Shown here: positions 1-20,400 of the stretch, piece by piece | How the letters are laid out: each line of letters starts with the position of its first letter | Position numbering within the stretch: position 1 is the first letter of the stretch | Assembly: GCA_015233195.1 (NCBI GenBank) | Contig: JADFYE010000006.1 | Location: 6,699-70,698 of the forward strand | Source of the DNA: Candidatus Omnitrophota bacterium | Lineage (GTDB): Bacteria > Omnitrophota > Gorgyraeia > Zapsychrales > Zapsychraceae | Reading direction: 5' to 3' | DNA: 64,000 nucleotides | The notes under the pieces: model-generated | The model's database searches: none | The model's input: only the letters and a program-made list of their open reading frames with translations | What the model was told of the DNA's origin: nothing | Program-made: the position numbers and the translations under genes

Positions 1-1356
1 TGGGGAAAGTTTGGAATATCTCAGGTATCAAAAGAAGCAACAACGTCGGAAAAAACTGCTACCCCTCAGCAAGCAATAAACGCGCTTAAGAAAAAAATTC
101 ATGAAAAATTGGTCGAGCGTTTACATATGGAAGGGATTGCCCTCGACGGATCAGAAGACCCCGCAACTTTTAAGATGATCCGGAAAATGGCAGAGGATGT
201 GGTAGGCAATTTATTATTGGAAGAGATCGGCGGACACATACCGTCACATGAAGCGCGGATGCAATTGGTAAAAGAGGTGGTAGATGAGGCGTTGGGATTA
301 GGACCGCTCGAAGAATTTTTGCAGGATGAAGATGTAACTGATATTTTAGCTAATAGCGTCAATGATATTTATGTTGAGAAAAAAGGAAAACTGATTTTTA
401 CTGGAAAAAGTTTTGCCTCAGAAGAAAAAATGCGTTCAATCATTGACCGGATAATCGCGCCGCTGGGTCGGCGTATCGACGAGTCAGTGCCTATGGTGGA
501 CGCGCGTCTGCCTGATGGTTCCCGGGTCAACGCAATTATTCCGCCATTATCTTTGAATGGTCCAATGATTACGATTCGAAAATTCGGCGAGGAAAGATTG
601 GGGTTAGATGAACTGCTTAATAAATATCAGAGTTTGACTCCCAATATGGCGACTTTTTTAAAAGCTTGTGTAGAGTCCAGACAAAACGTGATTGTTTCCG
701 GTGGAACTGGTGCAGGTAAAACTACTTTTCTTAATTTAATATCTGAATTTATTCCGTCGAGAGAGCGGATTATTACCATTGAAGATGCTGCTGAGTTGCG
801 GATTAAAAAAAGTCATTGGGTTAGGTTAGAGGCGCGTTCAGCAAACGTGGAAGGACGGGGTGAAATAACTATCCGGGATCTTTTCCGCAATAGTTTACGT
901 ATGCGTCCTGACCGTATAGTAATTGGAGAGTGTCGTGGTCCGGAAGTTTTGGATATGTTGCAGGCAATGAATACTGGACATGACGGTTCTATGACTACAG
1001 TTCACGCTAATTCGACCAAAGATGCTTTGACTCGTCTACATTCTTTGATCTTGTTGACTGGCATTGAACTTCCGGTACGCGCCATCAATGAAATGGTCGC
1101 GTCCGCAATTGATATTATGGTGCACGTTAATCGTTTTTCAGACGGAACCAGAAAAGTAACTGGGATTTCTGAAATTGCCGGTTTGACCAGCGACTATCAA
1201 ATGGAATTAAAAGATATTTTTGTGTTTAAGCAAGAAGGGGTTGCTGAAGACGGAACCATTTTGGGCGGCTATCATCCCACGGGCTATATTCCGGAGTGTT
1301 ATCACAAGTTTGTAAATAGCGGTATAAAGATGAGCGCGGATATATTTAAAGAATAG
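1..1356 (+). CDS. cpaF: Tad/Cpa pilus assembly ATPase (CpaF/TadA family, T2SS-E/VirB11-like), 5'-partial at window edge
   Basis: Frame 1 is open from nt 1. Walker A VSGGTGAGKTT, Asp-box/Walker B RPDRIVIGECRG, His box GHDGSMTTVHAN. CpaF-typical N-domain LGLGPLEEFLQDEDVTDI..VEKKGKL. Conserved-looking ALKKKIHEKLVERL lies upstream of the TTG used by the ORF track (109), so the start is outside the window. TAG stop 1354-1356. Confidence 0.9.
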   Translation, partial: WGKFGISQVSKEATTSEKTATPQQAINALKKKIHEKLVERLHMEGIALDGSEDPATFKMIRKMAEDVVGNLLLEEIGGHIPSHEARMQLVKEVVDEALGLGPLEEFLQDEDVTDILANSVNDIYVEKKGKLIFTGKSFASEEKMRSIIDRIIAPLGRRIDESVPMVDARLPDGSRVNAIIPPLSLNGPMITIRKFGEERLGLDELLNKYQSLTPNMATFLKACVESRQNVIVSGGTGAGKTTFLNLISEFIPSRERIITIEDAAELRIKKSHWVRLEARSANVEGRGEITIRDLFRNSLRMRPDRIVIGECRGPEVLDMLQAMNTGHDGSMTTVHANSTKDALTRLHSLILLTGIELPVRAINEMVASAIDIMVHVNRFSDGTRKVTGISEIAGLTSDYQMELKDIFVFKQEGVAEDGTILGGYHPTGYIPECYHKFVNSGIKMSADIFKE

Positions 1357-1813: not shown

Positions 1814-3133
1814 ATGGGCGTAACCTATAAATTAAAAGAAGAAGTAATTAATTTTGTTTTAGAAATTAAACGTGACTTTCCTGATACTAGCTGCAGGCAG
1901 ATTGCTTCATTGGCTTCTGAAAAATTTAAAATAGAAATTTCCAAGTCTTCGGTAAACAGCATCCTTCAACGCTCAGCCTTAAGCAGTTCAGTTGGTCGGC
2001 GTAATTTATACGCTAAATTCCCAAAAAAATTTGAAATCCCTGCAGAAAAAAAGACTCAAATTACAGAAGTTTTTAAGAACATGCAGTTGGATGATAAAGG
2101 GGAGTTAAAAGCTGGAAAAACCGCGCATATAGAAACAGTAGTTAGCCTTGAAGTTGATGAGGTTGCTAAAAAAGAACTGGAAAATAAAAATTTAACGTTA
2201 TTAGGTGTGGGAATGAATAAGTCTGTGCCGGTATTTCAAGATTCCGGTGTAGAAAAAGTTTTATCTAAAAATTTTGCTTACGCTGGAATAGTATTTTTAA
2301 AAGCAGCAGCTCGGGATGTTTTGGCGCGGGAATTGTGGAGTGATGAAGAACAGGAAAACCGGATACTTCAGTATTTATGTTTAGATCGATATGGCATAAC
2401 TGAACATGATTCAGAAAAAGCTTTAAAAAATTTAGAGGCTCTTTTTTCAATGCAGACCAGAAGGGCGTTTTCGTTTGGTAATTTAAATGCTAAAGAAAGT
2501 ATAGACGTGGGAGTCACGGTCATAAAAGCGATCAAGATTGTTTTGGATGATGGGCGATATTTTTATTTTAGTCCGGATGATTTGGCAGTATGTGAAGATA
2601 TAGATGAGGCAGTTGCTGCGCCGTACCAGCGATGTTTAGATGTGTGCGCTGATGGATTTTTAATAAATAGGATACCATTGGTTTTGAATATTTCCAGTCA
2701 TTGCAGTCTTGAGACTGAGGCTGCAGTGGATAGTTTGATAAATGGGTCATCAACTTTGAAAAAAATTTGTTTTTTAGATCAGTTAAAAAATGTTTTTTTT
2801 GAGATCAAGCATATACCGAATTTGCCTAGAAAATTAGTTAAAGCTCGGGGGAGAATACGGTTGTCGGATAAGGGGGCGAGGGATTGGAAAGGATTTATTT
2901 TTGATGAACAAAAAATTCTGGATGATAATATCGGAGATTTGATATTTGAGCGGATGAAGCAGCGGTTTTTTTATGGAATTGAAGCGAATAAGGGAGAAGA
3001 TTTTTGGAAAAAAATATTTTCGCTGTCCGGCGAGATAGTAAAAAATGAAAATGTGACGCAAATAAAATTGAATTTAGAAGGCGGCACTTTTGATTTCGCA
3101 GTAGTTGACCGAATAAAAGAAATAAATTTTTAA
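1814..3133 (+). CDS. Hypothetical protein with N-terminal helix-turn-helix (possible locus regulator)
   Basis: 439-aa ORF. The N-terminus VINFVLEIKRDFPDTSCRQIASLASEKFKIEISKSSVNSILQRS looks like a homeodomain-like/transposase-type HTH. I do not recognise the remaining ~370 aa. No DDE motif and no terminal inverted repeats. Confidence 0.55.
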   Translation: MGVTYKLKEEVINFVLEIKRDFPDTSCRQIASLASEKFKIEISKSSVNSILQRSALSSSVGRRNLYAKFPKKFEIPAEKKTQITEVFKNMQLDDKGELKAGKTAHIETVVSLEVDEVAKKELENKNLTLLGVGMNKSVPVFQDSGVEKVLSKNFAYAGIVFLKAAARDVLARELWSDEEQENRILQYLCLDRYGITEHDSEKALKNLEALFSMQTRRAFSFGNLNAKESIDVGVTVIKAIKIVLDDGRYFYFSPDDLAVCEDIDEAVAAPYQRCLDVCADGFLINRIPLVLNISSHCSLETEAAVDSLINGSSTLKKICFLDQLKNVFFEIKHIPNLPRKLVKARGRIRLSDKGARDWKGFIFDEQKILDDNIGDLIFERMKQRFFYGIEANKGEDFWKKIFSLSGEIVKNENVTQIKLNLEGGTFDFAVVDRIKEINF

Positions 3134-3345: not shown

Positions 3346-3486
3346 ATGAAAAGTAAAGGACAAAGCTTATTAGAATATTCTGTTATTGCCGCGGTTGCAG
3401 CTATGGTCTTGGTGACCATGAGCACCTATGTCTTTCGCGCTGTTCAAGGCGCTCGTCAGCATATTTATAATGAAGCCAAAAAATGA
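3346..3486 (+). CDS. flp: Flp-type prepilin (46 aa; not in the ORF track)
   Basis: ATG 3346, TGA 3484-3486. MKSKG/QSLLEYSVIAAVAAMVLVTM has a basic leader, G, then xxxxEY and a hydrophobic helix, which is the Flp/Fap motif. The size is typical of Flp pilins. Confidence 0.8.
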   Translation: MKSKGQSLLEYSVIAAVAAMVLVTMSTYVFRAVQGARQHIYNEAKK

Positions 3487-3503
3487 TTTACATGGGAGGG
3501 ATT

Positions 3504-3743
3504 ATGGGAAAAGGAGTATTTTGTAAGGCAAGGGAAAACAAAGGTCAAAGCACGATCGAATATATTATTTTGGTCACTGCTATTATCGCGGTAATGATTC
3601 TGTTTTTAGCTAAGGGCGGACCGTTTCAGAAAGCAGTAAATCAAACGTTGGAATCGTCGAAAAACAGCATGTTGGAAATGTCGAATCGGTTAAAAAACTC
3701 CAGACCGGCGGTAGGTACTTCAGTAGTTGACCCCAAAAAATAA
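3504..3743 (+). CDS. flp: Flp-like prepilin
   Basis: MGKGVFCKARENKG/QSTIEYIILVTAIIAVMILF. Strong SD GGGAGGG (3494-3500) precedes ATG 3504. The track start 3483 (ATGA overlap with the previous stop) is an alternative. Confidence 0.8.
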   Translation: MGKGVFCKARENKGQSTIEYIILVTAIIAVMILFLAKGGPFQKAVNQTLESSKNSMLEMSNRLKNSRPAVGTSVVDPKK

Positions 3744-3769
3744 GTGAAAATTTTTTCAGAGGAGAATAT

Positions 3770-4144
3770 ATGTTAAAACTAATGTGGCAAAATCGAAAAG
3801 GACAAAATACCGCGGAATACGCGATATTAATTTCTTTAGTTGTGGCAGGGGTAATAGCAATGCAGCAGTTTGCGCAGCGCGCTTTGCAGGCTAGGATCAG
3901 AGATGCTAGTGTTACTATGACACAGCAGACCAATGCGCTCGGATCTACAGTTCAATATGAGCCGTATTATAAAGAAAGTAAAACTTCCCGGACTGCAGTT
4001 GATAATGGGTATACGGATATTAATGCAGAAAAAGATAGACGCGGAACCAGAACAACCGATGATTCTTCCGGGTATGAAACTACTAAATATGGTAAGGGGA
4101 CGAAAGACAACGCCATTAACTTAGAGGACTTTAATTCGAAGTAA
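3770..4144 (+). CDS. flp: Flp-like prepilin with extended C-terminal domain
   Basis: SD GAGGAG then ATG. MLKLMWQNRKG/QNTAEYAILISLVVAGVIAM. Shares QRALQARIRDA and QYEPYY motifs with the 4586 paralog. Confidence 0.8.
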   Translation: MLKLMWQNRKGQNTAEYAILISLVVAGVIAMQQFAQRALQARIRDASVTMTQQTNALGSTVQYEPYYKESKTSRTAVDNGYTDINAEKDRRGTRTTDDSSGYETTKYGKGTKDNAINLEDFNSK

Positions 4145-4176
4145 TATAATTTGTTATTTAGATAAGAGGAGGAAAT

Positions 4177-4503
4177 ATGTTTAAAAAATTGAATGAACGC
4201 CGGAATAGAGGACAGAGTACGCTGGAATACGCGATACTTATAATTATTATTGCGGCGGCTTTGTTGTCGATACAAGCGTATATTAAACGCGGGTTACAAG
4301 GCAGGTTAAAATCCGCAACTGATGACATCGGCGGGCAATATTCAGTAGGAAATACCCGGGTTAATAAGATATCGACAAAAGTAACTAAAACAGAAGAAAC
4401 GTTTAATTTAGGAGTATCCAAGACTAATATCAATTCGGAAAATTCAAAAGTTAATGAAGAAACTGAAATTATTTCAGCAAATAAAGAGTATTGGGGAAAA
4501 TAG
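4177..4503 (+). CDS. flp: Flp-like prepilin with extended C-terminal domain
   Basis: SD AGAGGAGG. MFKKLNERRNRG/QSTLEYAILIIIIAAALLSI. KRGLQGRLKSATDDIGGQY motif shared with 5315 and 12357. Confidence 0.8.
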   Translation: MFKKLNERRNRGQSTLEYAILIIIIAAALLSIQAYIKRGLQGRLKSATDDIGGQYSVGNTRVNKISTKVTKTEETFNLGVSKTNINSENSKVNEETEIISANKEYWGK

Positions 4504-4585
4504 AGGGAGTGGATGGTATAGAGTATAGAGAAAAAAAGAGGTAACCCTGCTTCGCGTAAAGCTACGCAGAGCCAAGGATAAGTTA

Positions 4586-4999
4586 ATGTTTAGAATCATA
4601 TCACAGCATAGGAATAAAAGGGGCGATCAAGGGATCGCCCTTTTTTCTAAACGCGGACAAATTTTAGCGTCCGAATATGTGGTGATTTTTTCAGTAGTTA
4701 CAGGCATGATAATTATGATGACGGTTTTTGTGAAACGAGCTTTTCAGGCGCGAATTTACGACGCGCGGAATACTATGGTTGAACAGGCTCGGGCTAATGC
4801 CGGGGATAGTTATATCGGTACGATTAATGCTGAATATGAACCGTATTATATGCAGTCTAAACGATTTTCGGATTCTACAACGAACTCGCAAGAACAGATA
4901 TTACCAGGCGGAACAGACGGCACATATATTAAAAGTACTTTTGATTATTCAAATGAAAAGAAAAATGTGATTTATTTGCCGCCTAAGGATGCAAAATGA
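4586..4999 (+). CDS. Flp-like prepilin paralog (long leader, one-residue insertion in motif)
   Basis: ...FSKRG/QILASEYVVIFSVVTGMIIMM. KRAFQARIYDA and EYEPYY shared with 3770. The start codon is uncertain because of the 27-aa leader. Confidence 0.65.
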   Translation: MFRIISQHRNKRGDQGIALFSKRGQILASEYVVIFSVVTGMIIMMTVFVKRAFQARIYDARNTMVEQARANAGDSYIGTINAEYEPYYMQSKRFSDSTTNSQEQILPGGTDGTYIKSTFDYSNEKKNVIYLPPKDAK

Positions 5000-5313
5000 T
5001 ACGACAAAGAAAAAAAGCGCAGACGTTCGTCGAATACTCTTTAATTTTAGGGGTTATAGTTGTAACGATTTTAGCATTGCGTCCGATGATAATGCGGGGC
5101 GGGCAGAGCATGGTAAAAACTATGACTGACCAAATAGCTAATCAGCAGTCAGCTGAACAGGATTTTTCTCAGGGCTATCTGAAAGAACAAAAAGAAAAGG
5201 TTGCTACTGACGCAAGAAGATATAAGGGAGAAAATCGTGGAAATTATTTTTTTGGTTATAATGAAACCACCAGAACGACGATGAACATGACATATAATAT
5301 GGGGTATAGATAA
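4996..5313 (+). CDS. Flp-like prepilin paralog (Ala at the cleavage position)
   Basis: ATGA overlap with the previous gene. MIRQRKKA/QTFVEYSLILGVIVVTILAL. Confidence 0.7.
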   Translation: MIRQRKKAQTFVEYSLILGVIVVTILALRPMIMRGGQSMVKTMTDQIANQQSAEQDFSQGYLKEQKEKVATDARRYKGENRGNYFFGYNETTRTTMNMTYNMGYR

Positions 5314-5314
5314 A

Positions 5315-5626
5315 ATGTTAAAAAGAAGAAAAGTTTGCGGGCAATCAATATTGGAATATATGGTTTATTTTACTGTAATAGTCGCGGTATTTGTAACTAT
5401 ATCAACTTATTTTAAAAGAGGGTTAGCCGGCAAATGGAAAGCTTCAGTCGATGATCTGGGCGATCAGTATGATCCGCGCACAGCTGAGTCACATATTTAT
5501 TATAAAACTAACGGAACAACAGTTACTACGTTGAAAAGTACTGAGACTCCCAAAGGTCAATATACAAATCGGTTTGATACTAGTGATTTAACTGAGACCA
5601 AGACGGGGAATATAGTAGTAAAATAG
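5315..5626 (+). CDS. flp: Flp-like prepilin with extended C-terminal domain
   Basis: MLKRRKVCG/QSILEYMVYFTVIVAVFVTI. KRGLAGKWKASVDDLGDQY paralog motif. Confidence 0.8.
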   Translation: MLKRRKVCGQSILEYMVYFTVIVAVFVTISTYFKRGLAGKWKASVDDLGDQYDPRTAESHIYYKTNGTTVTTLKSTETPKGQYTNRFDTSDLTETKTGNIVVK

Positions 5627-5636
5627 TAGGATTAAA

Positions 5637-6902
5637 ATGTTAAAAGAAAAAAACAAAAAAGGGCAGGTTGTTCTCGAGCTAGCGGCTTTTGTGGCTGTAG
5701 TAGTGTTCATTATGGGAATGATCATTAAGCAGTCTATGGACGCTAAATATACGGCTAATGGAGAGTTCCGCGCGTTTAGGCTTGCGCTTAAGTCATCTTT
5801 TATGGCTTCAAAGGGATATATGGGCGGCGGAGGTGAAGATGGCAATAAATCCCGTAATACTGCGGCAATTATAGTTATTGAGGATAGGCTAGACGCTGGA
5901 TCAGGAAGATATGAAACTAAAGACCGTGTTCCGCGGGTAGCCCAAGGCAGTGCAATAGCTAGCGTGAATTTATTTTATACAGTTGATGCCGGAGAAACCT
6001 TTAATGAACCGGTTATGGATTTGTATATTAATAGTCAACATTTTGTATTATCTACCGCGAAATTGGAACGCAAAACTCCGACGGGAACCATATATGAGAG
6101 AATTGCTAATGGAGATAAAGATTATTGGCGAGAGGGCGATGTAAGCCGTTTTGATATTTATAGAGATGGAACTAAACGGGTAACTGATCCTAACTTAATG
6201 AAATATTTTGAGTGGCAGTGGATGGTGGTGCCTTCTAGTAAAATAGATGTGGATAAAGGTAATCATTTACAGGTGGATATAGACGGTGATTTAAAAGATG
6301 AAACTATAATTAAAAAGTGGTTGGTTATGGATAATCAAGACGGAGATATAGATTTAACTTATGATGAGCATGACGCTGATTTATATGATGCTTGTAAAGG
6401 TACTGAGACAATTGATGGAAGAGAATATGAGTATGTTGATCTTAATAAACCAAAATGCAGTAAAGTTAAATGGCGTTCTGGATTGACCAGCAATGCTACT
6501 TTTCTTTCACAACCCAGTCATGGAAAAATCCCTCCGCAGATGTTGGAGACTCAGGAGAAGACTGGAGCAGATGGTAAAAAGTACGCGATTTCTAAAAAGT
6601 TTAATAATAAAACAGATATAATTGAAAGAGAAATTCGGCTGGCTAATTATAGTGGCGCCTTGCGAACTTATGGATATACTACTGGAACAGTTAATCCTGT
6701 GGCAGTAACTTGTTCTAATCCTGTTCCGACCTGTTGTTTTGGAGACAACTATGATAAGACTTGTATTTTTAAGGGTGGCAAAAGCGGAAATAAAAAATAT
6801 TTACCAGTTGTTTATGTAAGATCCAGCGTCGGTGATACTAGAACCAAAGGCTGGGTTACGGATGTTTCGGATCAGAACGCGGGTGAGGTTTTTGGAAAAT
6901 GA
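5637..6902 (+). CDS. TadE-like pseudopilin (421 aa)
   Basis: MLKEKNKKG/QVVLELAAFVAVVVFIMGMII resembles the TadE N-terminal motif (G-x-x-x-x-E-h-A-h-hydrophobic helix). I do not recognise the large C-terminal domain. Confidence 0.7.
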   Translation: MLKEKNKKGQVVLELAAFVAVVVFIMGMIIKQSMDAKYTANGEFRAFRLALKSSFMASKGYMGGGGEDGNKSRNTAAIIVIEDRLDAGSGRYETKDRVPRVAQGSAIASVNLFYTVDAGETFNEPVMDLYINSQHFVLSTAKLERKTPTGTIYERIANGDKDYWREGDVSRFDIYRDGTKRVTDPNLMKYFEWQWMVVPSSKIDVDKGNHLQVDIDGDLKDETIIKKWLVMDNQDGDIDLTYDEHDADLYDACKGTETIDGREYEYVDLNKPKCSKVKWRSGLTSNATFLSQPSHGKIPPQMLETQEKTGADGKKYAISKKFNNKTDIIEREIRLANYSGALRTYGYTTGTVNPVAVTCSNPVPTCCFGDNYDKTCIFKGGKSGNKKYLPVVYVRSSVGDTRTKGWVTDVSDQNAGEVFGK

Positions 6903-7144
6903 AAAATAACGGTCAAATAACTTTAGAATTTGTTTTTTGTATGATCATAGTTTTTTTAATTATATTTTCTCTGACTAAAGTAATGTCTTGGTCTGGGGAT
7001 GGATATGTCGGCATATTTAAGGGACATAATAGTTCTATGACTAGCTGGCAGAGACCAGATCAGCTTGATCCTGGATATTGGAAAGGTAAAGATAAGTATT
7101 TGAACAGTGTTTATACCGGGAAGAATCCGGCGCAAAAAGATTGA
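6899..7144 (+). CDS. TadE-like minor pseudopilin (81 aa)
   Basis: ATGA overlap with the upstream gene. MKNNG/QITLEFVFCMIIVFLIIFSL. Confidence 0.6.
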   Translation: MKNNGQITLEFVFCMIIVFLIIFSLTKVMSWSGDGYVGIFKGHNSSMTSWQRPDQLDPGYWKGKDKYLNSVYTGKNPAQKD

Positions 7145-7147
7145 TAT

Positions 7148-10100
7148 ATGAATATTGAAAATAAAAATTCCGGAAAAAAAGGACAGGTAGCGATAATTTT
7201 ATTGTTAGTCGCTGCTATGGGTTTGATTTTTTATGCCGCGGTTTTAAATATCCAAAAGTCGGGCGAAACCAAAACCAAAGTTATACTTGCTGCTGATTCA
7301 GCTGCGAGCGTTATGGCGTCTGAGCTTGCCAGTTACGGACAAAAATTATTTAAAGAACAAATGGGCGGAGAAGAAGAGATTTGCGAGGGTTCGGGCTTTG
7401 GGTTTTTGCAGATTATAATTTCGATCATATTAGTTGTAGTAACAGTGCTTTCAGTTGTTTTTGCGCCAGGTATTAGTGCGGCATTGTTTTATACGACTGC
7501 GATCTGGCTGGCACTTTCCGCTAACACCATAGTTCAAGTGTTGGTAATTCAGCCGCAGATTACGTCTATGTGGAACAAGATGATGGAAGTTTCAGCGTCG
7601 CAAGCTGATACTTTTTCTGAAGGGGGAATGCAGGCAGCTTTGCAGGGCGCAGTTGCTGACAGCAAGGAGGTCGCGGATTTATTTGATATAAATACCAATG
7701 GAAAATATGGATATAAAGAGGATGGGACGCCGGAAGATAAAATCAGCCGGTATTCATATTATTATACTGAACGGATCCGCTTAAATGATGAGGGTAGATA
7801 TAATCCTGGAGGAGGCACTGGCACAGAGACGCCAACGTTTAAAATGGACGTTCCGTATGTGGTTAAAAAATTTCAGGATGAATTAGCTGATTTTCTTTAT
7901 GATAATCCGGATGGGTTAGACGAGAATGGCAGTTATGACCCGCGGTGCGATGTTCAAAAAAATCCAACCCAATTGTGTTTTGACCATACAGTTAATCAAT
8001 CTCCAGGGTTTTGTAGACAGGATATTTTCAGAGCTTGTAATGCTGGTGAAACTGGAGTGAGTAATCCGGTATATGACACAGTTAATCCTGGGGCTACTTG
8101 TCACCCTCGGGTTAGAGATTTTTGGGCACTGTTTACACCAGTTCCAGTAAGACAGTGTGAGTATGAATATACTGAGACTTTTCCTGAGGATCCTACTGTG
8201 CCGTTGTCGTATGTAGACGCGCAAGTTATGTATCCATATCCAGCGATAGATGCAAATCATCAGTGTCATTATGAAGAGGGGAAGGTTGTTCCTTCTGAAT
8301 GCAATCCTTGTTGTGTTCCCCCGTCAGTTCTTCTGTCAAATGTTACGACCATTAAAACTTTACCGGATTGTTGTGATTGTTCAGCCCGTCCGCCTAGGCA
8401 GGAATATTTACCGAGTAATTTAGGAGAGCCGGGAAATCTTTGTACTCAAGTAGACGAGGCGAGTCCAATAGTTTGTCCGAAAGATCCCATGTCGTGCGAT
8501 GGATCAGCCCAGTCAATAGGACCAGCAACATTACAATGCGGCGTTACTAGCACTTGTGATGTGGCTGCTCCGTATTCGACATTTAATCAATACACTAAAG
8601 CTAATTATCCTTGGGTTTATGATCCGTCATTGGATGATTGGACCACGTATTCAGACGGGATAAATTGGACGGCGTTTAATTGGACTAATTATGATTGGGT
8701 CAACAATCCGGATCAGCGACCGTTTGTATTCTCTAAATTATTAGGACGGGATGATGAGAATAAAAATTATTTTCGTAATCCGCGCCACGTAGATGATTAT
8801 TCCCATCATCCTCAGCAAGAAACCAGTTCTTGTTCTAATACGGATTTTAAGATCGAAGATGCGACTGGATATCAGACGGATAAGACTGATGCTTTTGGCG
8901 CTCCGCTATTTATTGCCAAAGACGAGAAACCAGGATTTATATTTCCGCTTTTATATAAAATGTCAAAGTGGGGGTTAGCTTTATCAACAGTATATCCTTC
9001 AACTAAAGATACAGCGGGCGCAACTATACCTTTGCCAAAAGACAGCAGCGGGGCTGTTTCTAATCCTCTTTACAATCTTTATAATGAATATTGGCAGAGT
9101 ACAGATAAGACTAATGTAGATAGCGTAATGGATGTTACTAATGCTAAATTTCATCAAAAATTTTATAAACCTGCAGGATGTGATTATCCGAATGTAGACG
9201 CTAATACTTGTCAGAGTAATGTTGTTGCAGGAATAAATGATGCTAATGATGTTTGTGGACGAAAAAATAACCGAGTTTGCGATATTGATTTATGCGCAAA
9301 TGCTTCGCCCTCCCCGCTGGTTCCAATGACCTGGGATGATTCAGAAGATTGTTATGGACGAGGCACAGGCTTTAGCAATGATCCTACATCAGGAAATCCG
9401 TATGTTGATGAAGCAACTGGAAAGGGTTTAGCTTGGGATAAATTGTTCCCGCCGGAAATGGAAGGCCGTTGGGTATTACCAATTCAAAAAGTAGAGGGAA
9501 AAGATATAAATTATAGGGTTAGATATGAAGGCGGACAAAAAATAAAAAATTATGTAAGATTGCAATTTGCGCCGCGATCGCAGGTTGACGGTATGGATAT
9601 GAATACCAGAGATAAAAGTGCTGCCAAAAATTTAGCGCCAGTAGGTATTGATATAGTACAACCAGTTGCTAATTTAATAGCAGGCGAAGATATCAGCAGT
9701 TTAAAGGCGAACTCTAATGAAGCGCAGTGCGCGCAGCAATCGGTTTTTGATTTTAATACTGGGATGTGGAGGAAAGGGGATGATTTATATTGTTCTTCAA
9801 CCTATCCTTATGATAAGCATTGCGATAAAAATAAACCACAGCCTTGGGCTTTAGAGCAATTAGGAATAGCGCTACCTGACTCTTGTCAATATTCTCGTGC
9901 TGCGGGTATTCCTGACGGAACAGTTGAGCCGAATCCTGTTGTTGATCCGTATGAACCGGATATTTCTCTAACTACTCCAATGACAAAAGGTGCCCCGACG
10001 GTAAAAGATTGCGCTTGTTCAGATAAAGGAGTGGATAAAGAAGATTTTCCAGATGATCCTTTAGATACAGTTATCTCGGATATGCATGATTTTATTGTTT

Positions 10101-12349
10101 GGGCGCAAAGTATTGTAAACTCTAATCCTTATACTTTGGCTGAGTCTTTTGCGAATTGGTATAGAGGCGCGGCATATTTCCTCGAAGCTGCTCCAATGGC
10201 AAGCTGTAGAATGATGGCTGGCTCAACGCTGGTTCCCCCTCGCAGGGATTGCGCGATGTGTGATAGTTTAACTGATTATCAACTTTATTCGGGTCAAGCT
10301 CTTTTAGCTGGACAATCATTCTGTTTTTACAAAAACAATCCTCCTCCGGGCGGACGGCTTTATTATTGGATCAGCACTTTAAAAATGTTGAGAGATCGGT
10401 TAAATAGTTTTTTGATTAGTAGTTATGAGACGATGAAACCGCATGGTAATAATCTTGAAAATTGTTACACGGCTTTTTGTGTGCCGAATGCCCAGTGCAG
10501 GAGCAATTCGAAATTTTATACTAACAGTGTAGAAAAAACTATTTTAGACAATTCTAGCGGATTGAATCAGGTTCAAGAGTGTTTAAATTGGAATGCTAAT
10601 GATGTTATACCTGGAGCTGACTTAACCAATCCCAGCGCTTATAAGGATGCGTTTCCGATATCAGACGCTCGTAAAAATTCTTCGTGGCCTTTAGATGAAA
10701 ATGGTCAATTTGAAGTTAAAGGTAACGCGGTTAAATTTTATGCTTGCGGACAGACTTGCTCGGATACTTATTGCGGGACAGATAAATTGCCGCGGTCAAT
10801 AGTTCCGGGTTGGAATCCGGCGAAATTTTCAACCGGTACAATAGGGAGTACACCTATTCTTAATAAAATGCTCGCATGTTGGGATGAATGTACTGAAACT
10901 GCGTGTGATGAAGCAGCTGATTCTTTAGTTAGTAACTGGGGAGCTGTGTCGAAGGTATTAAATGCTGATCCGGTTAATTTATCGGCGTTGAGTGCGTTGG
11001 GAGGACAAGCCGGCGTTGAAAACATTAAAGCTGCAGTATTAGCTTCGCCGTATTATGATTCGAATTGGCAGGTGGTTGCTCCTAAAAAAACCATTACTGT
11101 TATCGACGATGTTACTGGCGGTCCTAGTATTTCTATTACGGATTTTCCGCTTATAATTTGGCGTGGAGAGACTACTGAGTGCGCTAATACTGTAGCTGAA
11201 GATGGGACAACTGTAGAAAAATTATTAGGCGCTGGTATAGATAAGGGAAGTCCTTGGTATAACGCGGTTGCTCAAAGCGCGCAAGATGCCGGACCAGCTG
11301 CAACAGGATCGACTCCAGCTCCGTGTGATCCGAGATATGATCCAGATGATCCGACTAAAAGCGGGTGGCTGGGATTTGTCAGACAAAGCGCGGTAGAAGC
11401 TGAAAATCAAGTTGTTAAAATGCGGCGCAGGGCAGAATTTTTATCTGCACGTGAAAATGAAGTTAGATATGTCTTGGATAAAATTATAGGTCAAGAATTT
11501 AGTACTACGCCGACAACAACGCAAGCACACGGCATGTTGTGGCATTTAGAGAAATTTTTAAGCTGTACTCCGGATGATGTAACCGGAGAATTTGTAGGAC
11601 CAGTATGTAATTTGATTAAAGCGCGCAGATTGTATCCGTATGTTGGAAATCAGCCTCCTCAGCCTCCAGCAGATGGTGGTGGTGGTGGAGATGAAGGTGG
11701 AGACGATAGCAGCAATGATGAAGAAGATCAGCCGTCTAATCCGAAATATACTATTGATGCTATCTATGGATGGAGGACAGAAGGAAAAATTGTAAATAAT
11801 GAGGAAGTAAAAGACGGGTCTTGGCATATTGCTCAGGTAAAAGTATGGATGCCGAAAAAAGGATACAGTAAAAAATGGCCTTATATAAAAACCTGGACGG
11901 AGAATATGGGCACTACCCGTTGTTATGCCATGAAGAGCACCAACGGTATTGTGTATGCACAAGTAAGGCGCTGGGATCAAACTAAGCCTTCAGGAGTTAA
12001 CTTTGCTAATGGAATAAAAATGTGGGATTTTAAATCCGGGGCAAATCCATACGGTGTTAATTCGGACAGTTCTAATATAGAAACAACATGTAATACCGAC
12101 GGGGATACCAATCCTTTGTTTGTAAAATATAAAGGTAAAGTTGCTGATTATACTGAGGAGAGGCTGCATAAAGTATTTGATGGAGCGTTTATGTTAGGGC
12201 TTAATGGCGACGCTGGATGTAAGGCTTTATCTGAAAAGCTTTTATCAGAGCAAGGGTTTAAGGAAGACGCTTGTGCTGCGTATAAATTGCACGACGAAGG
12301 ATATCGAATATATTTAAAAAGTAAATGCCCGTTTGTTAAAAAGAATTAA
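7148..12349 (+). CDS. TadG-like giant pseudopilin / pilus-associated Cys-rich surface protein (1,733 aa)
   Basis: N-terminus KKG/QVAIILLLVAAMGLIFYAAVLNIQKSGETKTKVILAADSAASVMASELA fits the TadE/G-like 'Tad' N-terminal domain (hydrophobic helix followed by AaDaAaLAaa). A second hydrophobic segment lies at about 7390-7560. The rest is very Cys-rich (e.g. CNPCCVPPS, PDCCDCSARPP). An acidic/Gly low-complexity patch PPADGGGGGDEGGDDSSNDEEDQ lies at about 11660-11735. Confidence 0.75.
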   Translation: MNIENKNSGKKGQVAIILLLVAAMGLIFYAAVLNIQKSGETKTKVILAADSAASVMASELASYGQKLFKEQMGGEEEICEGSGFGFLQIIISIILVVVTVLSVVFAPGISAALFYTTAIWLALSANTIVQVLVIQPQITSMWNKMMEVSASQADTFSEGGMQAALQGAVADSKEVADLFDINTNGKYGYKEDGTPEDKISRYSYYYTERIRLNDEGRYNPGGGTGTETPTFKMDVPYVVKKFQDELADFLYDNPDGLDENGSYDPRCDVQKNPTQLCFDHTVNQSPGFCRQDIFRACNAGETGVSNPVYDTVNPGATCHPRVRDFWALFTPVPVRQCEYEYTETFPEDPTVPLSYVDAQVMYPYPAIDANHQCHYEEGKVVPSECNPCCVPPSVLLSNVTTIKTLPDCCDCSARPPRQEYLPSNLGEPGNLCTQVDEASPIVCPKDPMSCDGSAQSIGPATLQCGVTSTCDVAAPYSTFNQYTKANYPWVYDPSLDDWTTYSDGINWTAFNWTNYDWVNNPDQRPFVFSKLLGRDDENKNYFRNPRHVDDYSHHPQQETSSCSNTDFKIEDATGYQTDKTDAFGAPLFIAKDEKPGFIFPLLYKMSKWGLALSTVYPSTKDTAGATIPLPKDSSGAVSNPLYNLYNEYWQSTDKTNVDSVMDVTNAKFHQKFYKPAGCDYPNVDANTCQSNVVAGINDANDVCGRKNNRVCDIDLCANASPSPLVPMTWDDSEDCYGRGTGFSNDPTSGNPYVDEATGKGLAWDKLFPPEMEGRWVLPIQKVEGKDINYRVRYEGGQKIKNYVRLQFAPRSQVDGMDMNTRDKSAAKNLAPVGIDIVQPVANLIAGEDISSLKANSNEAQCAQQSVFDFNTGMWRKGDDLYCSSTYPYDKHCDKNKPQPWALEQLGIALPDSCQYSRAAGIPDGTVEPNPVVDPYEPDISLTTPMTKGAPTVKDCACSDKGVDKEDFPDDPLDTVISDMHDFIVWAQSIVNSNPYTLAESFANWYRGAAYFLEAAPMASCRMMAGSTLVPPRRDCAMCDSLTDYQLYSGQALLAGQSFCFYKNNPPPGGRLYYWISTLKMLRDRLNSFLISSYETMKPHGNNLENCYTAFCVPNAQCRSNSKFYTNSVEKTILDNSSGLNQVQECLNWNANDVIPGADLTNPSAYKDAFPISDARKNSSWPLDENGQFEVKGNAVKFYACGQTCSDTYCGTDKLPRSIVPGWNPAKFSTGTIGSTPILNKMLACWDECTETACDEAADSLVSNWGAVSKVLNADPVNLSALSALGGQAGVENIKAAVLASPYYDSNWQVVAPKKTITVIDDVTGGPSISITDFPLIIWRGETTECANTVAEDGTTVEKLLGAGIDKGSPWYNAVAQSAQDAGPAATGSTPAPCDPRYDPDDPTKSGWLGFVRQSAVEAENQVVKMRRRAEFLSARENEVRYVLDKIIGQEFSTTPTTTQAHGMLWHLEKFLSCTPDDVTGEFVGPVCNLIKARRLYPYVGNQPPQPPADGGGGGDEGGDDSSNDEEDQPSNPKYTIDAIYGWRTEGKIVNNEEVKDGSWHIAQVKVWMPKKGYSKKWPYIKTWTENMGTTRCYAMKSTNGIVYAQVRRWDQTKPSGVNFANGIKMWDFKSGANPYGVNSDSSNIETTCNTDGDTNPLFVKYKGKVADYTEERLHKVFDGAFMLGLNGDAGCKALSEKLLSEQGFKEDACAAYKLHDEGYRIYLKSKCPFVKKN

Positions 12350-12356
12350 GCAGAAG

Positions 12357-12596
12357 ATGAAAAAAAATCGCGCCCAATCTATTTCTGAGATTATGTTATT
12401 GCTAGCACTTTTAGCGGGTGTTATGATGCTGATGCAAAAATATGTTTTACGTTCTTTTATGGGACGGATGAAGACTGCAGCAGATCAGGTGGGGTATGGC
12501 AGGCAGTATGATAAAGAAAAAACCACAACTTGTGTTTTGGACGTCAAAACCAATTCTTGGAAAAAAGTAGATGGAACCGGCAGCTGTAATCCGTAA
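12357..12596 (+). CDS. Flp-like prepilin paralog
   Basis: MKKNRA/QSISEIMLLLALLAGVMMLM followed by RSFMGRMKTAADQVGYGRQY (the paralog motif of 4177 and 5315). The track start TTG 12333 overlaps the upstream gene; ATG 12357 is preferred. Confidence 0.6.
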   Translation: MKKNRAQSISEIMLLLALLAGVMMLMQKYVLRSFMGRMKTAADQVGYGRQYDKEKTTTCVLDVKTNSWKKVDGTGSCNP

Positions 12597-12619: not shown

Positions 12620-13471
12620 ATGGTTTTTGTTTTTTTAATAGTGTTTGTAGCAGTCGGGTTTTCGGCTTTGACCGTTATTCCGATCGTCGAGAAATGGTTC
12701 GCGGTAGCCAGCGCGACCCAAGAACAGCAGTTTATGGAACGGATGGAACCTTTGATGGCTAAACAAAAAGCCAAGAAGATGTCTTATCTGTTCATTCTTT
12801 GTCCGTTGCTGCTGGGCGCTGGCGGATATTTTGCTTTACCTAATGTGCCGATGTTTTCGCTCCCGGTCGGAATAGGCTTAGGAATAATTTGTCCATATTT
12901 TATTGTTAAAACTATTATAAAACGTAATCAGGAAAAATTTCAGGATCAGCTGGTGGATGCCTTGCTGATTATGTCCTCGTCTTTTCGTGGAGGCTTAAGT
13001 TTGGTGCAGGCATTGGAAGCAGTAGTTGAAGAGATGCCGGATCCGATCCAGTCGGAATTCGGATTGGTTTTAGCTGAAAACAAAATGGGCGTGTCTTTGG
13101 AAGACGCGATGCAGCATTTGTTCCGCCGCATGCCGTCTATACCTTTACAACAAATGATTACTGCGATTTTGTTGGCGCGGGAAACCGGCGGTAATTTACC
13201 GGTAATTTTTAACCGCATCGTAAATAATATCCGGGAGAGGAAAAAAGTTAAACAGAATTTGGATACGTTGACTATACAAGGGAAAATTCAGGGCGCGGTT
13301 ATGACTTTTTTGCCGATTGGATTTGCTTTTGTGGTTTACTCGAGTAATCGACGGGTTTTTGATCACATGTTGCAGTCGCCGTTAGGGCAGAAATTATTGA
13401 TCGCGGCTTTTATTTTGTGGGTGGTAGGCGCGTTTATGATTTTGAAAATTAGTAAATTTGACGACTTTTAA
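12620..13471 (+). CDS. tadB: TadB-like pilus platform protein (T2SS-F domain)
   Basis: SD AAAGGA. N-terminal TM. QDQLVDALLIMSSSFRGGLSLVQALEAVVEEMPDPIQSEF...ARETGGNLPVIFNRIVNNIRERKKVKQNLDTLTIQGK matches the TadB/T2SSF consensus. C-terminal TM pair. Confidence 0.85.
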   Translation: MVFVFLIVFVAVGFSALTVIPIVEKWFAVASATQEQQFMERMEPLMAKQKAKKMSYLFILCPLLLGAGGYFALPNVPMFSLPVGIGLGIICPYFIVKTIIKRNQEKFQDQLVDALLIMSSSFRGGLSLVQALEAVVEEMPDPIQSEFGLVLAENKMGVSLEDAMQHLFRRMPSIPLQQMITAILLARETGGNLPVIFNRIVNNIRERKKVKQNLDTLTIQGKIQGAVMTFLPIGFAFVVYSSNRRVFDHMLQSPLGQKLLIAAFILWVVGAFMILKISKFDDF

Positions 13472-13568
13472 ATGAGCGCATAATTTACGGAACAAAGTGA
13501 ACGTAAGTTATTTGCGCGAATTTATCCTGAGCGAAGCCGAAGGATTACAATTTATAAAAAAGGTTTTT

Positions 13569-14444
13569 ATGTTAATCATAGTTTTAGTCATGATCTATAT
13601 CGCTGTTTTGACTTTTATCCTCGGGTGTTTTCCGCCGGAATGGGAAGAACGTCCGACGTTAAATGCTTTTGGCGAAGAGATTTATACCAGGAAACAGCGT
13701 AAAAGTTTTACGATTTTGACTTTGTTTGGGGTGATAAATAAACCGGTTTTGGAAATATTCGGCGACATAAAAAAACAATTAAATCGGGATCTGGCAGTAG
13801 CTCGCTTAGACCTGTCTCCTGAAGAATTCATGGTCGTACAAGAAGTAACCATTGGTGTATTATTAGTGGTGCTGCAGCCGATAGTTAAATCAGACATGGT
13901 CATATTTTATATTTGCGTTTCGCTCGCTGGAGGATATATGCTGCCCAGGATTTGGTTGAATGGAAAAATCCGAGCGGTTAAGAATGTGATTGTTAAAGAG
14001 CTGCCTGACGCCATTGACTTACTGGCGCTTTGCGTTAATGCCGGGTTAGATTTTATGCTGGCATTACGCTGGGTGGTCGAGAAATCCCCGCCGTCTTTAA
14101 TGATGACTGAGTTAAATAATCTTTTGCAGGAAATTAATATAGGTAAAACCCGCAGAGACGCGATTCGGGATTTGGCGTTTCGTTATCAGCTTCCTGATCT
14201 TTCGACTTTTTCACGTACGCTGATCCAAGCGGATAAAATGGGTACTTCGGTTACTGAGGCGTTGAATATTCTTTCTGAAGATATGCGTTTATCTCGTTTT
14301 CGACGCGGTGAACAAATGGCGTTAAAAGCTCCGATGAAAATGTTGATTCCGCTTTTATTATTTATCTTTCCAGTGGTAGGTATTTTAGTTGCTGGTCCCA
14401 TCCTTTTGGATTTTATAGAGAACAATCCGTTCAAAGCAATGTAA
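13569..14444 (+). CDS. tadC: TadC-like pilus platform protein (T2SS-F domain)
   Basis: ELPDAIDLLALCVNAGLDFMLALRWVVEKSP...IQADKMGTSVTEALNILSEDMRLSRFRRGEQMALKAPMKM matches the T2SSF consensus. ATG 13569 (AAAGG 6 nt upstream) gives an N-terminal TM like TadB. The track start GTG 13497 would read through a small hairpin (ATCCT..GCGAAGC..AGGAT, 13524-13545). Confidence 0.85.
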   Translation: MLIIVLVMIYIAVLTFILGCFPPEWEERPTLNAFGEEIYTRKQRKSFTILTLFGVINKPVLEIFGDIKKQLNRDLAVARLDLSPEEFMVVQEVTIGVLLVVLQPIVKSDMVIFYICVSLAGGYMLPRIWLNGKIRAVKNVIVKELPDAIDLLALCVNAGLDFMLALRWVVEKSPPSLMMTELNNLLQEINIGKTRRDAIRDLAFRYQLPDLSTFSRTLIQADKMGTSVTEALNILSEDMRLSRFRRGEQMALKAPMKMLIPLLLFIFPVVGILVAGPILLDFIENNPFKAM

Positions 14445-17484: not shown

Positions 17485-20400
17485 ATGAAAAAAGCCACGG
17501 AAAAAGGACAATTAGGTTTGCCTGAGAGAGATAATTCTCAAAGTCTTCCTATAGAAGATTTGGGAAATATCTCTTTTAATCCTTCTGAGGTTGAACTTCC
17601 AGAGTTCACCGCAGCCGATGTTGACCGTTTAAATATCGATAACAGCCTTGCCAATGAAGATTTTGATCACACTGCGTTTTTAATCCCAACAGAACCGTCA
17701 TTTATCAGCCGTTTTAACCGTTGGTTGAAAGTTACAGCAGTAGCTGTGATTTGTACTTTTGTGCCTCAGCAGATCAGTTGGGCGTTCAATTATAATCCTT
17801 CAATAATTTGGCACAGTTTAGCTCCGGTAACAGCGCCGATGATGTCGCCTTTATCCGACGGGATATTGTCCGGCACAGAGCACACTCCTAACACTGATTT
17901 TGACGCTCTTGAAAAAATCGAGTACGGCAAACAAGTTGCCACTTATGTTTCAGGCGGGTTGAACCAGCTTTTAAAACAGTTAGTTGATAAAAAAGATACC
18001 CGCGTCAAATTACAGCTCCCAGCTTCGCACGATAAAACCAGCCAAAACACTTTTGTCCAAATTGACATTGCTGATCCTTTGAAGCAGAAAACTGTGGATA
18101 ACTTTGTGGATTGGTTGAAAAAGCCGGAAATTCACGCCTTAAACTGCGGGGTTTACGCTTTGCAGGATATTTTGAAATTGTCAGGTGTACAGCTTAATCC
18201 CGAGGAAATTTCAGTTGCTACTTTGAGTGTGGACATTTTGTATAAAGTTATAAAGCCGGCAGAACCGAAACTTAAGACGTCGTTGTTTGCAATGGATAAG
18301 ATCGCCCGGGGATATGGGTTGGAATATGTGCCGGTTAAGCTGGATAAAAAAGCTGACGTGGTTGGGGTTAAGCCGCCGTTTATTGCGCATTTCTCAGACG
18401 AACATTTCGTAACTGTTACGTCGATCAACAGCACTAAAGTTACTTATTTGGATATTGGTCGCGAAACCTCGGCGGATACAGTTAAATTCATCAGCAATTT
18501 GAGCGGGTTTATTTATGCTAAGTCGTCGGCGTTAGAAGGCATTAGAGCAGAGAAGATTTCGGAATCTTTATCAGCATACGTCTGGGGTTCGAAATGGAAA
18601 GATAAGTCGAATGAGCTGCCTGGTTTCATGAATGATTCCAGTGTTTTGATGTCGTTCTTGACTGATATTATTTCTTTAATAATTGCGGCAATGTCGGGCG
18701 GAGTTGGGGTTATTAATTGGTTGATCACTAAACTGGTATCTACCATGTTTCAAATTTGTGTGGCGCAGGGAGCTTGCGACGAGAAAACAGCTTTTATTTT
18801 ATCTGCAGCAATTTCAGCGTCTTTAACTGCCGGGGTTAGCGCGCAAGCGTCGAACGCCAGTATTGCTTCCGGCGGTGCAACCGCATCTAATTCAGCTTCA
18901 TTTTTGGGTGGTTTTGGGCAGAGCGCTGACGCGTTTGCTGGTTCAATGTCTGGTTTAAAAAGCATGTTCATGGGTATGCCTGGAGTAAGTGGAATGATGG
19001 GTTCACTTAGTTCGATTAACCCAATGAATTTATTTGGAGGAATGGGCGCTAGTGTTGTTGGCGGTACAGCAGCTCAGGCAGCAACTCAGTCAGTCGGGTT
19101 TGCTATGGCAAAAGGATTTTTCTCTGGATTAATAAAAGCGTTCGTACAGTGGGAAGTTAAAGAGGCAATTGCTCCTCAGCAAAAAGATAAAGATGGTAAC
19201 GCAGTAGCTGGAAAGAATGATTGGATCGCAGGATGTGTTTCCGGATTAGCTGCAACATTTGCTGGATTTGTGGTTGATACTGCGTTTGATGCTGGAGCTG
19301 GTATTTCAAATGCGTTTGCTAAGAATAGTCAGGCATTGATGTCGAGCATTTCCAAACAATTGATGATTTTTGGTCTTAGAGCAGTTTTGGATGCTGCAGG
19401 CGTGGATGGTAATTCTGCGGTATCGAGTTTGATAGGGGATACTTTGAGCAGTTTAATGGATTTGGCGCAGCAAGCAGCACAAGAACAACAGCAGGCTGAA
19501 GAACAAGCTCGGGCTGGACAGCAAGGCGGGCAACAGGGTGGACAAATCAAAGTTACGGATTATAATCCGACTACAAAACTTTATACAGTGGTATTTTCCG
19601 ACGGAACAACATCCCACATGACTGCAGATCAGCTTCAGGCAGCTGGAATTGATGTTGCGAAATTGCAAGCACAAATAGCGCAAGCTGGGACAGCGAAAAC
19701 CCAGGTGAAACAAGCACAAAATAAAGATTTGGCTGTAAAGAATGACCATGGCGCGCTTATTCAAAGCGTTGCTAAAAACGGCGATATTTATACTGTGGTA
19801 GTTGTGGGAAAAGAGACTCAGACCTTTACTGGAACAACAGCAGAATTGGACATAAAGTTTAAAGCAGCAGGACTAGTTATCCCGGTATTGACTGAAGGCG
19901 CAAAAGTAATTTTTGCAGATCAAGGATTTAAAGGTCAGACTGAAGGTTTTGAGGTTGGCGCAGACGGTAAGGTTGTAAAAGCTAACTTCTCTAATGGTAT
20001 GACGGCTAAAAATCTGGGCGCTGCTAACTCAGAGGTTTATTTAGATAAAGTTGGTTGGGATAATACAACTTTAAGTAAAGAGAATGCGGATAAATTAGCA
20101 ACAGCTTTTGGCTGGAATAATATTGTTGCTGTTGACGGAAAAAAAGGTTTAGATGCTGTAAATCTTACTTGGGGGAATGTTTTAACTGGCGCTGGAGCTG
20201 GTACAGTTTACGCTGGAAGCGATAAATCAAAAGCTTACGCGGTTGCGAGTTCAGGACAATATATTGCTGCGCTTACGAAGACGACAGACGATAATACTAC
20301 TCATTTTATGGCTAATGGAGAACCGTTATTTTATACATTTTCAGGCACACATTTACTTGGAATCGGTGACGCGTTTACTCCGCAAATGCCAAGTCAAAGA

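Follow-up and report, generated by a model that had tools for sequence, protein, structure and literature searches.

A cysteine-rich pilin-like protein of Omnitrophota Tad operons as a candidate counterpart of TadG, CpaL and KilN

Large minor pilins at the tip of Tad (type IVc) pili are an already known kind of protein. In the Kil/Tad predation pilus of Myxococcus xanthus, the large, TadG-like pilin KilN has many predicted disulfides and an extra domain without a homolog in the PDB; it sits at the tip with KilL and KilM and is proposed to be both the backbone and the extremity of that complex (PMC12075869). In Bdellovibrio, which encodes a TadZA fusion, prey invasion depends on TadG (10.64898/2026.07.08.737194), and the TadB/C proteins of Omnitrophota cluster with Bdellovibrionales homologs (PMC10066038). 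Here, we analyze one gene from a 64,000-nucleotide (nt) stretch of DNA of a Candidatus Omnitrophota bacterium (contig JADFYE010000006.1, positions 6,699 to 70,698; hereafter the window). Its open reading frame (ORF; 7148..12349, + strand) starts with ATG, is uninterrupted and encodes 1,733 amino acids (aa), which are 100% identical to the "hypothetical protein" HQL25_03590 of a Candidatus Omnitrophica metagenome-assembled genome (MAG). An earlier sequence-only reading had described the product as an outsized, cysteine-rich TadG-like protein and a possible tip adhesin, and the ORF and the motifs that it quoted are all found in their places. We think it probable, though short of firm, that the protein is the Omnitrophota counterpart of TadG, CpaL and KilN, that is, a large pilin-like subunit lacking Glu at position +5 (Glu+5) that primes the Tad pilus and ends at its apex.

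The genes of KilN and of our protein both belong to a Tad-type system, of a predator in Myxococcus and of a probable one here, and both lie beside two minor pilins of smaller size (PMC12075869). Set beside the published description of KilN, it has the same pilin-type leader and hydrophobic alpha1 helix, together with a large extra domain that combines long helices, a beta scaffold, many predicted disulfides and the lack of a PDB homolog. It departs from KilN in that the Omnitrophota family spans 1,000 to 1,750 aa, has about 20 to 40 predicted disulfides and carries a hydrophobic hairpin inserted after alpha1; the Omnitrophota loci seen have a single copy each, against four paralogous tip clusters in Myxococcus. 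With CpaL and canonical TadG, the protein shares a place in a Tad locus, a minor-pilin-like character, a leader with Gly or Ala at -1 and a proposed apical role analogous to that of PilK and GspK (PMC12607857, PMC12918778). The C terminus of CpaL goes back to the N-terminal module by way of a beta-strand, and that of the Omnitrophota protein would do so through a predicted C79-C1592 disulfide. In contrast, CpaL and Sphingobium TadG are ~585 to 625 aa long and contain Tad_C and/or vWA (Pfam PF13400 plus PF09977/vWA), while the protein described here has neither vWA nor Tad_C, stays below threshold for PF13400, has the added hairpin and appears to have a new Cys-rich fold.

Two comparisons come from other machines. 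GspK of the type II secretion system (T2SS) and PilK (PilX) of type IVa pili are, like our protein, the largest minor pilins of their systems, lack Glu+5 and are encoded with two or three Glu+5-bearing minor pilins. GspK is ~330 aa long. Unlike them, the Omnitrophota protein has no match to the T2SSK family in Pfam, to PDB sequences or by Foldseek, and it belongs to a different machine (Tad/type IVc). PilY1/PilC of type IVa pili resembles it in exceeding 1,000 aa, in a proposed role in pilus-tip adhesion and in a disulfide-dependent structure, but PilY1 lacks a pilin-like N terminus and ends in a beta-propeller, a fold not found in the Omnitrophota protein by Pfam or Foldseek. New features are the size class and the fold, together with the very high content of disulfides, the insertion of a hydrophobic hairpin and the restriction to Omnitrophota.

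Leader, missing Glu+5 and operon slot

The protein opens with a basic leader peptide (aa 1-12, MNIENKNSGKKG; 7148..7183, +) that ends in G12, and the bond between G12 and Q13 is the presumed prepilin-peptidase site; the sequence across it reads KKG followed by QVAIILLLVAAMGLIFYAAVL. Next comes an alpha1-like helix (aa 13-71; 7184..7360, +) with a hydrophobic N-terminal half (TM1, aa 14-32), N34 and the AADSAASVMASELA motif at aa 48-61. AlphaFold2 (AF2) places a helix at residues 10-71. BLASTP identified 36 homologs collinear with the protein over aa 1-265, 365-620, 830-1260 and 1400-1720, and a hidden Markov model (HMM) search of 1.84 billion cluster representatives yielded 850 proteins at E≤1e-3, 399 of them at E≤1e-30; a repeat homolog search that started from the family alignment brought in only 2 more sequences. 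G12 and Q13 are invariant across 37 homologs, in which N34, S58 and S62 are also conserved, and GQ is found in at least 138 of the 166 representatives retrieved.

Position +5 sets the family apart from its neighbors. The neighboring pilin-like genes all carry the motif [KR]-[GA]-Q-x-x-x-E-[YFL], and the [GA]-Q-x-x-x-E core occurs in all homologs of the 421-aa protein encoded two genes upstream (29/29), in all those of the intervening 81-aa protein (25/25) and in about six small pilins per locus. No member of the target family has Glu+5 (0/29 loci). The residue is Ile in our protein and I, V, L, M or T in 148 of the 166 representatives, these being the ones in which the leader motif could be located. 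Glu+5 is invariably missing from PilK/GspK-type subunits, the most apical of their pili, and in Tad pili this role belongs to TadG/CpaL (PMC12918778).

Gene order was established from four contigs with gene calls and from 29 loci processed with our own ORF and BLAST script, the secretin, the DUF192 and helix-turn-helix (HTH)-like genes and TadB/TadC being scored only in loci whose flank or contig reaches that far. The family gene occupies the same slot of the Tad operon in all 29 loci. Upstream lie, in order, a secretin, a TadZ-TadA fusion, DUF192, an HTH-like gene (~440 to 670 aa) and five or six small Flp-like pilins; then follow a minor pilin of 430 to 709 aa, a minor pilin of 74 to 139 aa, the family member, a small pilin, TadB and TadC. 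In the window, the 421-aa minor-pilin-like partner (5637..6902, +; leader KKGQVVLEL, Glu+5 present) is a candidate TadF/KilL-like tip subunit, and its homologs precede the family gene in the same way in 29/29 loci. The 81-aa partner (6899..7144, +; leader NNGQITLEF), which has a weak TadE match and whose stop codon lies 3 nt ahead of the ATG of our gene, is a candidate TadE/KilM-like subunit. Downstream are two T2SSF-domain proteins, the TadB-like and TadC-like inner membrane platform (12620..14444, +). The protein thus sits in a Tad operon, with two minor-pilin-like genes directly upstream and TadB/TadC downstream, in support of the earlier reading.

The N terminus itself was compared by profile alignment with hhalign. 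The family N terminus aligns with those of the two upstream neighbors with the GQ leaders in register (P=0.002), and the N termini of the 421-aa and 81-aa proteins align with each other (P=2.4e-6). We conclude that the protein most likely begins with a pilin-type leader and alpha1 and not with an ordinary signal anchor, the outcome that would have undone the earlier proposal. Of the Tad N-terminal domain signature claimed at that time, the pilin-type leader shared with the neighbors and the correct register stand, whereas the PF13400 threshold is not reached.

Disulfides, fold and loop variation

The protein contains 55 Cys (3.17%), compared with 0 to 2.3% in 15 neighboring ORFs, so the very high Cys density noted earlier is real. 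When conservation was mapped, 32 of the 55 proved to be kept in at least 80% of homologs, which shows that the enrichment is not due to chance. The statement that these residues are often in CC or CxC clusters was too strong: the whole protein has 2 CC, 2 CxC and 3 CxxC, and the CC/CxC clusters singled out all fall within aa 385-412. They comprise CNPCCVPP (aa 385-392; 8300..8323, +), in which C388 and C389 are invariant and C385 nearly so in the 37-sequence alignment, and PDCCDCS, which starts at aa 406.

Pairing of these residues is evident from their numbers. Among 110 full-length representatives, we counted the Cys in the loop ahead of the hairpin together with those after the hairpin; this extracytoplasmic count is even in 98 (binomial p=6e-18), which implies that essentially all of these Cys are paired. 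Our protein, with 55 Cys and without three that are otherwise conserved, is one of the 12 odd-count exceptions. Co-loss predicts local pairs at 408-450, 1106-1117 and 678-743 and within 1244/1248/1253, and it singles out one pair that is far apart in the sequence. Cys79 (7382..7384, +) is nearly invariant and lies in the loop just ahead of the hairpin, and its predicted partner is Cys1592 in the C-terminal domain. Each of the two alignment columns is lost in 6 of the 110 representatives, and 5 of these losses are shared (Fisher p=2.9e-7). The five members concerned are mutually only 32 to 41% identical and each has a closer relative that keeps both Cys, which points to repeated, independent co-loss. 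The co-loss would place the loop and the ectodomain on the same, oxidizing side of the membrane and would have the C-terminal domain fold back onto the N-terminal module. A C terminus that returns to the N-terminal module has been reported for CpaL and GspK, as C-beta complementation (PMC12918778), and the predicted C79-C1592 disulfide and the conserved terminal strand would suit such a topology. The earlier suggestion of a large, disulfide-stabilized ectodomain is supported by both the parity and the co-loss.

Between Cys79 and the rest of the ectodomain lies a hydrophobic helical hairpin, TM2-TM3 (aa ~83-135; 7394..7552, +), followed by a QP-x-I-T-x-x-WNK motif. The second hydrophobic segment seen previously is indeed hydrophobic, yet it is two helices rather than a single segment; AF2 helices in this region span 83-105 and 111-149. 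Hydropathy detects the hairpin in 36 of 37 homologs. The one lacking it, P0002 from another Omnitrophota MAG (L035:9956-15121), is at 43% identity the closest homolog of our protein, and it has kept the remainder. No hairpin of this kind has precedent in known TadG proteins.

Beyond the hairpin, a conserved membrane-proximal N-domain (aa 136-262; 7553..7933, +) consists of helices and two short strands and has invariant D177, D180, D197, R201 and F242. It is followed by the Cys-rich ectodomain core (aa 263-1527; 7934..11728, +), in which conserved blocks are interrupted by loop inserts, and by a conserved beta-rich C-terminal domain (aa 1528-1733; 11729..12346, +) that holds Cys1592 and ends in a strongly conserved terminal strand. 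The best-conserved region is the N-terminal 215 residues; mean column identity across the family is 18%.

Length varies in the loops. The median length of the 166 sequences retrieved is 1,248 aa and the maximum 1,745, and our protein is among the five longest. The label "outsized" is therefore apt against the usual TadG, but within the Omnitrophota family large size is the norm. The 622 extra residues of our protein form 19 separate loop inserts of 8 to 70 aa on a conserved core of ~1,100 aa. One of the 19 is the acidic poly-Gly patch near 11.7 kb that had been pointed out earlier (aa 1498-1527; 11639..11728, +; the run GGGGGDEGGDDSSNDEEDQ is at aa 1510, nt 11675), a 30-aa insert with less than 50% homolog occupancy and a mean identity of 0.01 that is probably a flexible loop. 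An added adhesion domain as the source of the extra length was ruled out, given the scatter of the inserts and the lack of any Pfam domain in five other very long members (>1,600 aa). In one family member, P0019, a CBM60 domain (Ca-dependent xylan-binding module) is inserted in the variable loop region at residues 455-532; no other Pfam or NCBIfam domain was seen in the family.

For structure prediction we used the shortest full-length relative (P0036, 1,039 aa; 39-sequence alignment), for which AF2 gave a mean predicted local distance difference test score (pLDDT) of 78.8 and a predicted template modeling score (pTM) of 0.72. The model has a long N-terminal helix, a low-confidence hairpin, a coil-rich, Cys-dense middle with pLDDT mostly 80 to 95, long helices at aa 758-829 and a C-terminal beta domain with strands across 836-1034. 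The first 262 residues of our protein modeled less well (pLDDT 69.7, pTM 0.32). Foldseek found nothing at E≤1e-3 for the P0036 model in PDB and BFVD or for the N-domain model in PDB, and neither the whole-family profile nor the N-domain profile had a match among PDB sequences. When scanned against Pfam, NCBIfam and PHROGs, neither the complete sequence nor its first 212 aa had a usable match. Lectin and beta-propeller folds, as well as vWA, were rejected because neither Pfam nor Foldseek of the P0036 model matched them, which removes the vWA or lectin-like fold considered before. A likeness of the hairpin to ClyA-type pore-forming toxins (AhlB, SmhA/B, Cry6Aa, HblL1 and MakB in the whole-chain search at E 1.4 to 7, template modeling score ≤0.25) was dropped because these noise-level matches vanished when the N-domain was searched alone.

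Other genes of the window

The window starts inside the gene for the Tad ATPase (T2SSE/CpaF; C-terminal part, 1..1356, +), which is why only the TadA part is visible; in related loci the ATPase is a TadZ (ParA-like)-TadA fusion of ~720 aa (L001:949-3114, L002:78-2249, L003:582-2747), an unusual arrangement recently reported from Bdellovibrio as well. The secretin encoded upstream in such loci (L001:1-878, L003:1-516, L004:1-117) has a TonB_C domain besides Secretin and T2SS-T3SS_pil_N. Between the ATPase and the pilin genes are a DUF192 protein (1454-1711) and an HTH-like protein (1814-3133). Six Flp or class-III-signal pilin-like genes follow (3483..5626, +; 86 to 137 aa), each with a [GA]-Q-x-x-x-E-[YF] leader. 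On the other side of our gene, an 87-aa small pilin-like ORF (12333..12596, +; leader NRAQSISEIM) has a TTG start and a 17-nt overlap with the end of our gene; some of the upstream small pilins are its homologs, and its homologs elsewhere are longer (111 to 193 aa). Together, the nine pilin-like genes around the family member (3483-7144 and 12333-12596) are an unusually large repertoire for one Tad operon, and the leaders of all nine have Gln at +1.

Genome matches to the family are nearly all labelled Omnitrophota, with a few labelled Planctomycetales. Five loci with the same operon (L012, L018, L020, L022 and L033) come from records labelled Planctomycetales or Planctomycetia, which may be a MAG labelling problem.

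A 717-aa protein (14479-16632, -) with a hydrophobic, polytopic-looking N-terminal region and a C-terminal YdjC-like carbohydrate deacetylase domain stands between the Tad operon and a giant ORF. The latter (17485..64000, +) exceeds 15,505 codons, runs off the window and resembles an Omnitrophota "giant gene." Its Cys content is 0.23%, and its first 10,000 aa have no Pfam match at E≤1e-5. Among the related loci, at least 11 likewise have a giant gene behind the operon (47,583 aa in one case), while L012, L015 and L035 have no same-strand giant ORF despite enough downstream sequence. West-Roberts et al. report that a secretion locus is conserved upstream of giant genes in Omnitrophota (10.1101/2023.11.21.568195), and a 2026 preprint finds 13 of 14 giants flanked by genes for secretion or pili (10.64898/2026.06.07.730766). 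A Tad/T2SS-like locus beside Omnitrophota giant genes is thus already published (PMC10066038; 10.1101/2023.11.21.568195; 10.64898/2026.06.07.730766); the searched passages do not discuss the target family, which is the largest component of that locus apart from the giants.

Tip subunit or membrane component

If the protein is an apical TadG/CpaL/KilN-type subunit, its assembly might proceed as follows. The basic leader and hydrophobic alpha1 would insert it into the inner membrane, with the remaining ~1,600 aa outside the cytoplasm, where oxidation would turn them into a rigid body with about 27 disulfides. The C-terminal beta domain would fold back, and the C79-C1592 disulfide would staple it to the segment after alpha1. 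After cleavage of the leader, the protein and the 421-aa and 81-aa minor pilins, both with Glu+5, could form an initiation complex on the TadB/TadC platform, beneath which Flp-type pilins would be added, powered by the TadZ-TadA ATPase. Growth would push the complex through the secretin and present the disulfide-locked ectodomain at the pilus tip as a contact or adhesion module for prey or host, in which it may bind its partner and, as the earlier reading proposed, may help to determine target specificity. Variation concentrated in loops on a conserved core, and the one member with a CBM60 insert, are in favor of such a display.

Several results weigh against this assignment. PF13400 (Tad; gathering score, 22.3 bits) has no match in our protein in the Pfam scan and stays under the gathering score in every member tested, so that formal membership of the protein in that family is not attained. 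Among 36 relatives, 13 match at E≤10 (best E=1e-3; 9.5 to 19.8 bits), always beginning at model position 1, the G of GQ; PsbT-type transmembrane-helix noise is about as frequent in these relatives and is all that Pfam returns for the consensus N terminus of the family. For comparison, PF13400 gives only 20.8 bits for a genuine, full-length TadG of Sphingobium from a canonical tad locus, and N-terminal fragments of real TadGs match in 9/9 cases (best E=4e-11). By hhalign, the family N terminus meets those of real TadGs in the expected register but at P=0.064 and a probability of 0.9%, a test weakened by a narrow TadG reference alignment assembled from plasmid records, as the search seeded with a real TadG gave only 5 close relatives. 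The vWA domain of CpaL-type TadG is missing in the Pfam scan and by Foldseek, Foldseek matches no PDB pilin or adhesin, and a prepilin peptidase (A24) gene is absent from the window and from the surrounding 10 kb of related loci. Finally, alpha1 is followed by the conserved hydrophobic hairpin instead of the usual pilin beta-sheet, and after the hairpin AF2 predicts only two short strands (aa 174-176 and 198-200). Alpha1 and the hairpin would make a three-helix membrane anchor that is costly to pull into a fiber, and the hairpin complicates a simple model of a pilin extracted to the tip. Tentatively, we take the hairpin as additional hydrophobic helices that, where the tip complex has its base, would pack into the alpha1 bundle or cap it.

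The same hairpin underlies the main alternative, which we rate as unlikely but worth keeping in view: a resident, polytopic inner membrane component of the Tad machine. Its large, disulfide-rich periplasmic body would then serve, between the TadB/C platform and the secretin, for alignment, as a conduit or in gating, or else as a sensor in the periplasm. Three hydrophobic helices are present in about 36 of 37 homologs, the best-conserved N-terminal 215 residues would suit the part that contacts the machine, and recognizable TadD and RcpB were not seen in the loci examined. Aggregatibacter TadG has been reported to be membrane associated and is not an established TadV substrate. A resident component, however, hardly explains an invariant G-Q leader common to nine pilins or the strict absence of Glu+5. 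The hairpin cannot be essential to the fold, as P0002 lacks it and keeps all else, and a body of 1,000 to 1,600 aa with hypervariable loops and, once, a CBM60 insert looks like an exposed surface and not like a periplasmic strut.

It is improbable, in our estimate, that the protein instead serves the giant protein as a membrane-anchored dock, chaperone or export adaptor, rich in disulfides, through which the T2SS-/Tad-like machine would be coupled to secretion or surface display of the giant product. Such a link would fit the giant ORF seen downstream of the operon both here and in at least 11 related loci, as well as the secretion and pilus loci beside giants in two papers (10.1101/2023.11.21.568195; 10.64898/2026.06.07.730766). 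Yet the family gene stays with the minor pilins in 29/29 loci, including L012, L015 and L035 with no same-strand giant ORF, and with TadB/TadC wherever the contig extends, and a pilus role already accounts for the pilin-type leader. We give the least credence of all to a generic Cys-rich surface or periplasmic protein with an ordinary signal anchor, carried as a passenger in the operon. No part of the protein matches a curated family in Pfam, NCBIfam or PHROGs, and the sub-threshold PF13400 matches are about as frequent as PsbT-type noise, as a passenger might predict. Against this stand an invariant G12/Q13 and conserved N34, S58 and S62 at 18% mean column identity, the fixed operon slot in 29/29 loci, the consistent PF13400 register and a leader that aligns with the pilin leaders of the neighbors.

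A variant of the apical role gives the hairpin a function of its own, other than that of an inner membrane anchor. Carried with alpha1 on the pilus apex as a payload, it might insert into the membrane of prey or host as a membrane-piercing harpoon, and the head, locked by disulfides, might in addition attach the giant protein to the target cell. We regard this as a long shot; if true, the pilus would deliver a device for membrane insertion of a kind not yet described.

Bacteria of the Omnitrophota are ultra-small and abundant, most have not been cultivated, and they are thought to live as predators or parasites. As a probable apical subunit of the Tad pilus, the protein offers a concrete candidate for an Omnitrophota cell-contact determinant. 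For a subunit of the TadG/KilN class it has two to three times the usual size, with hypervariable loops on a conserved core, and it would carry the concept of adaptable Tad tips, developed for Myxococcus and Bdellovibrio, to another phylum. The ectodomain lends itself to heterologous expression, pull-downs and antibodies, for work in enrichment cultures such as Velamenicoccus-Methanosaeta.

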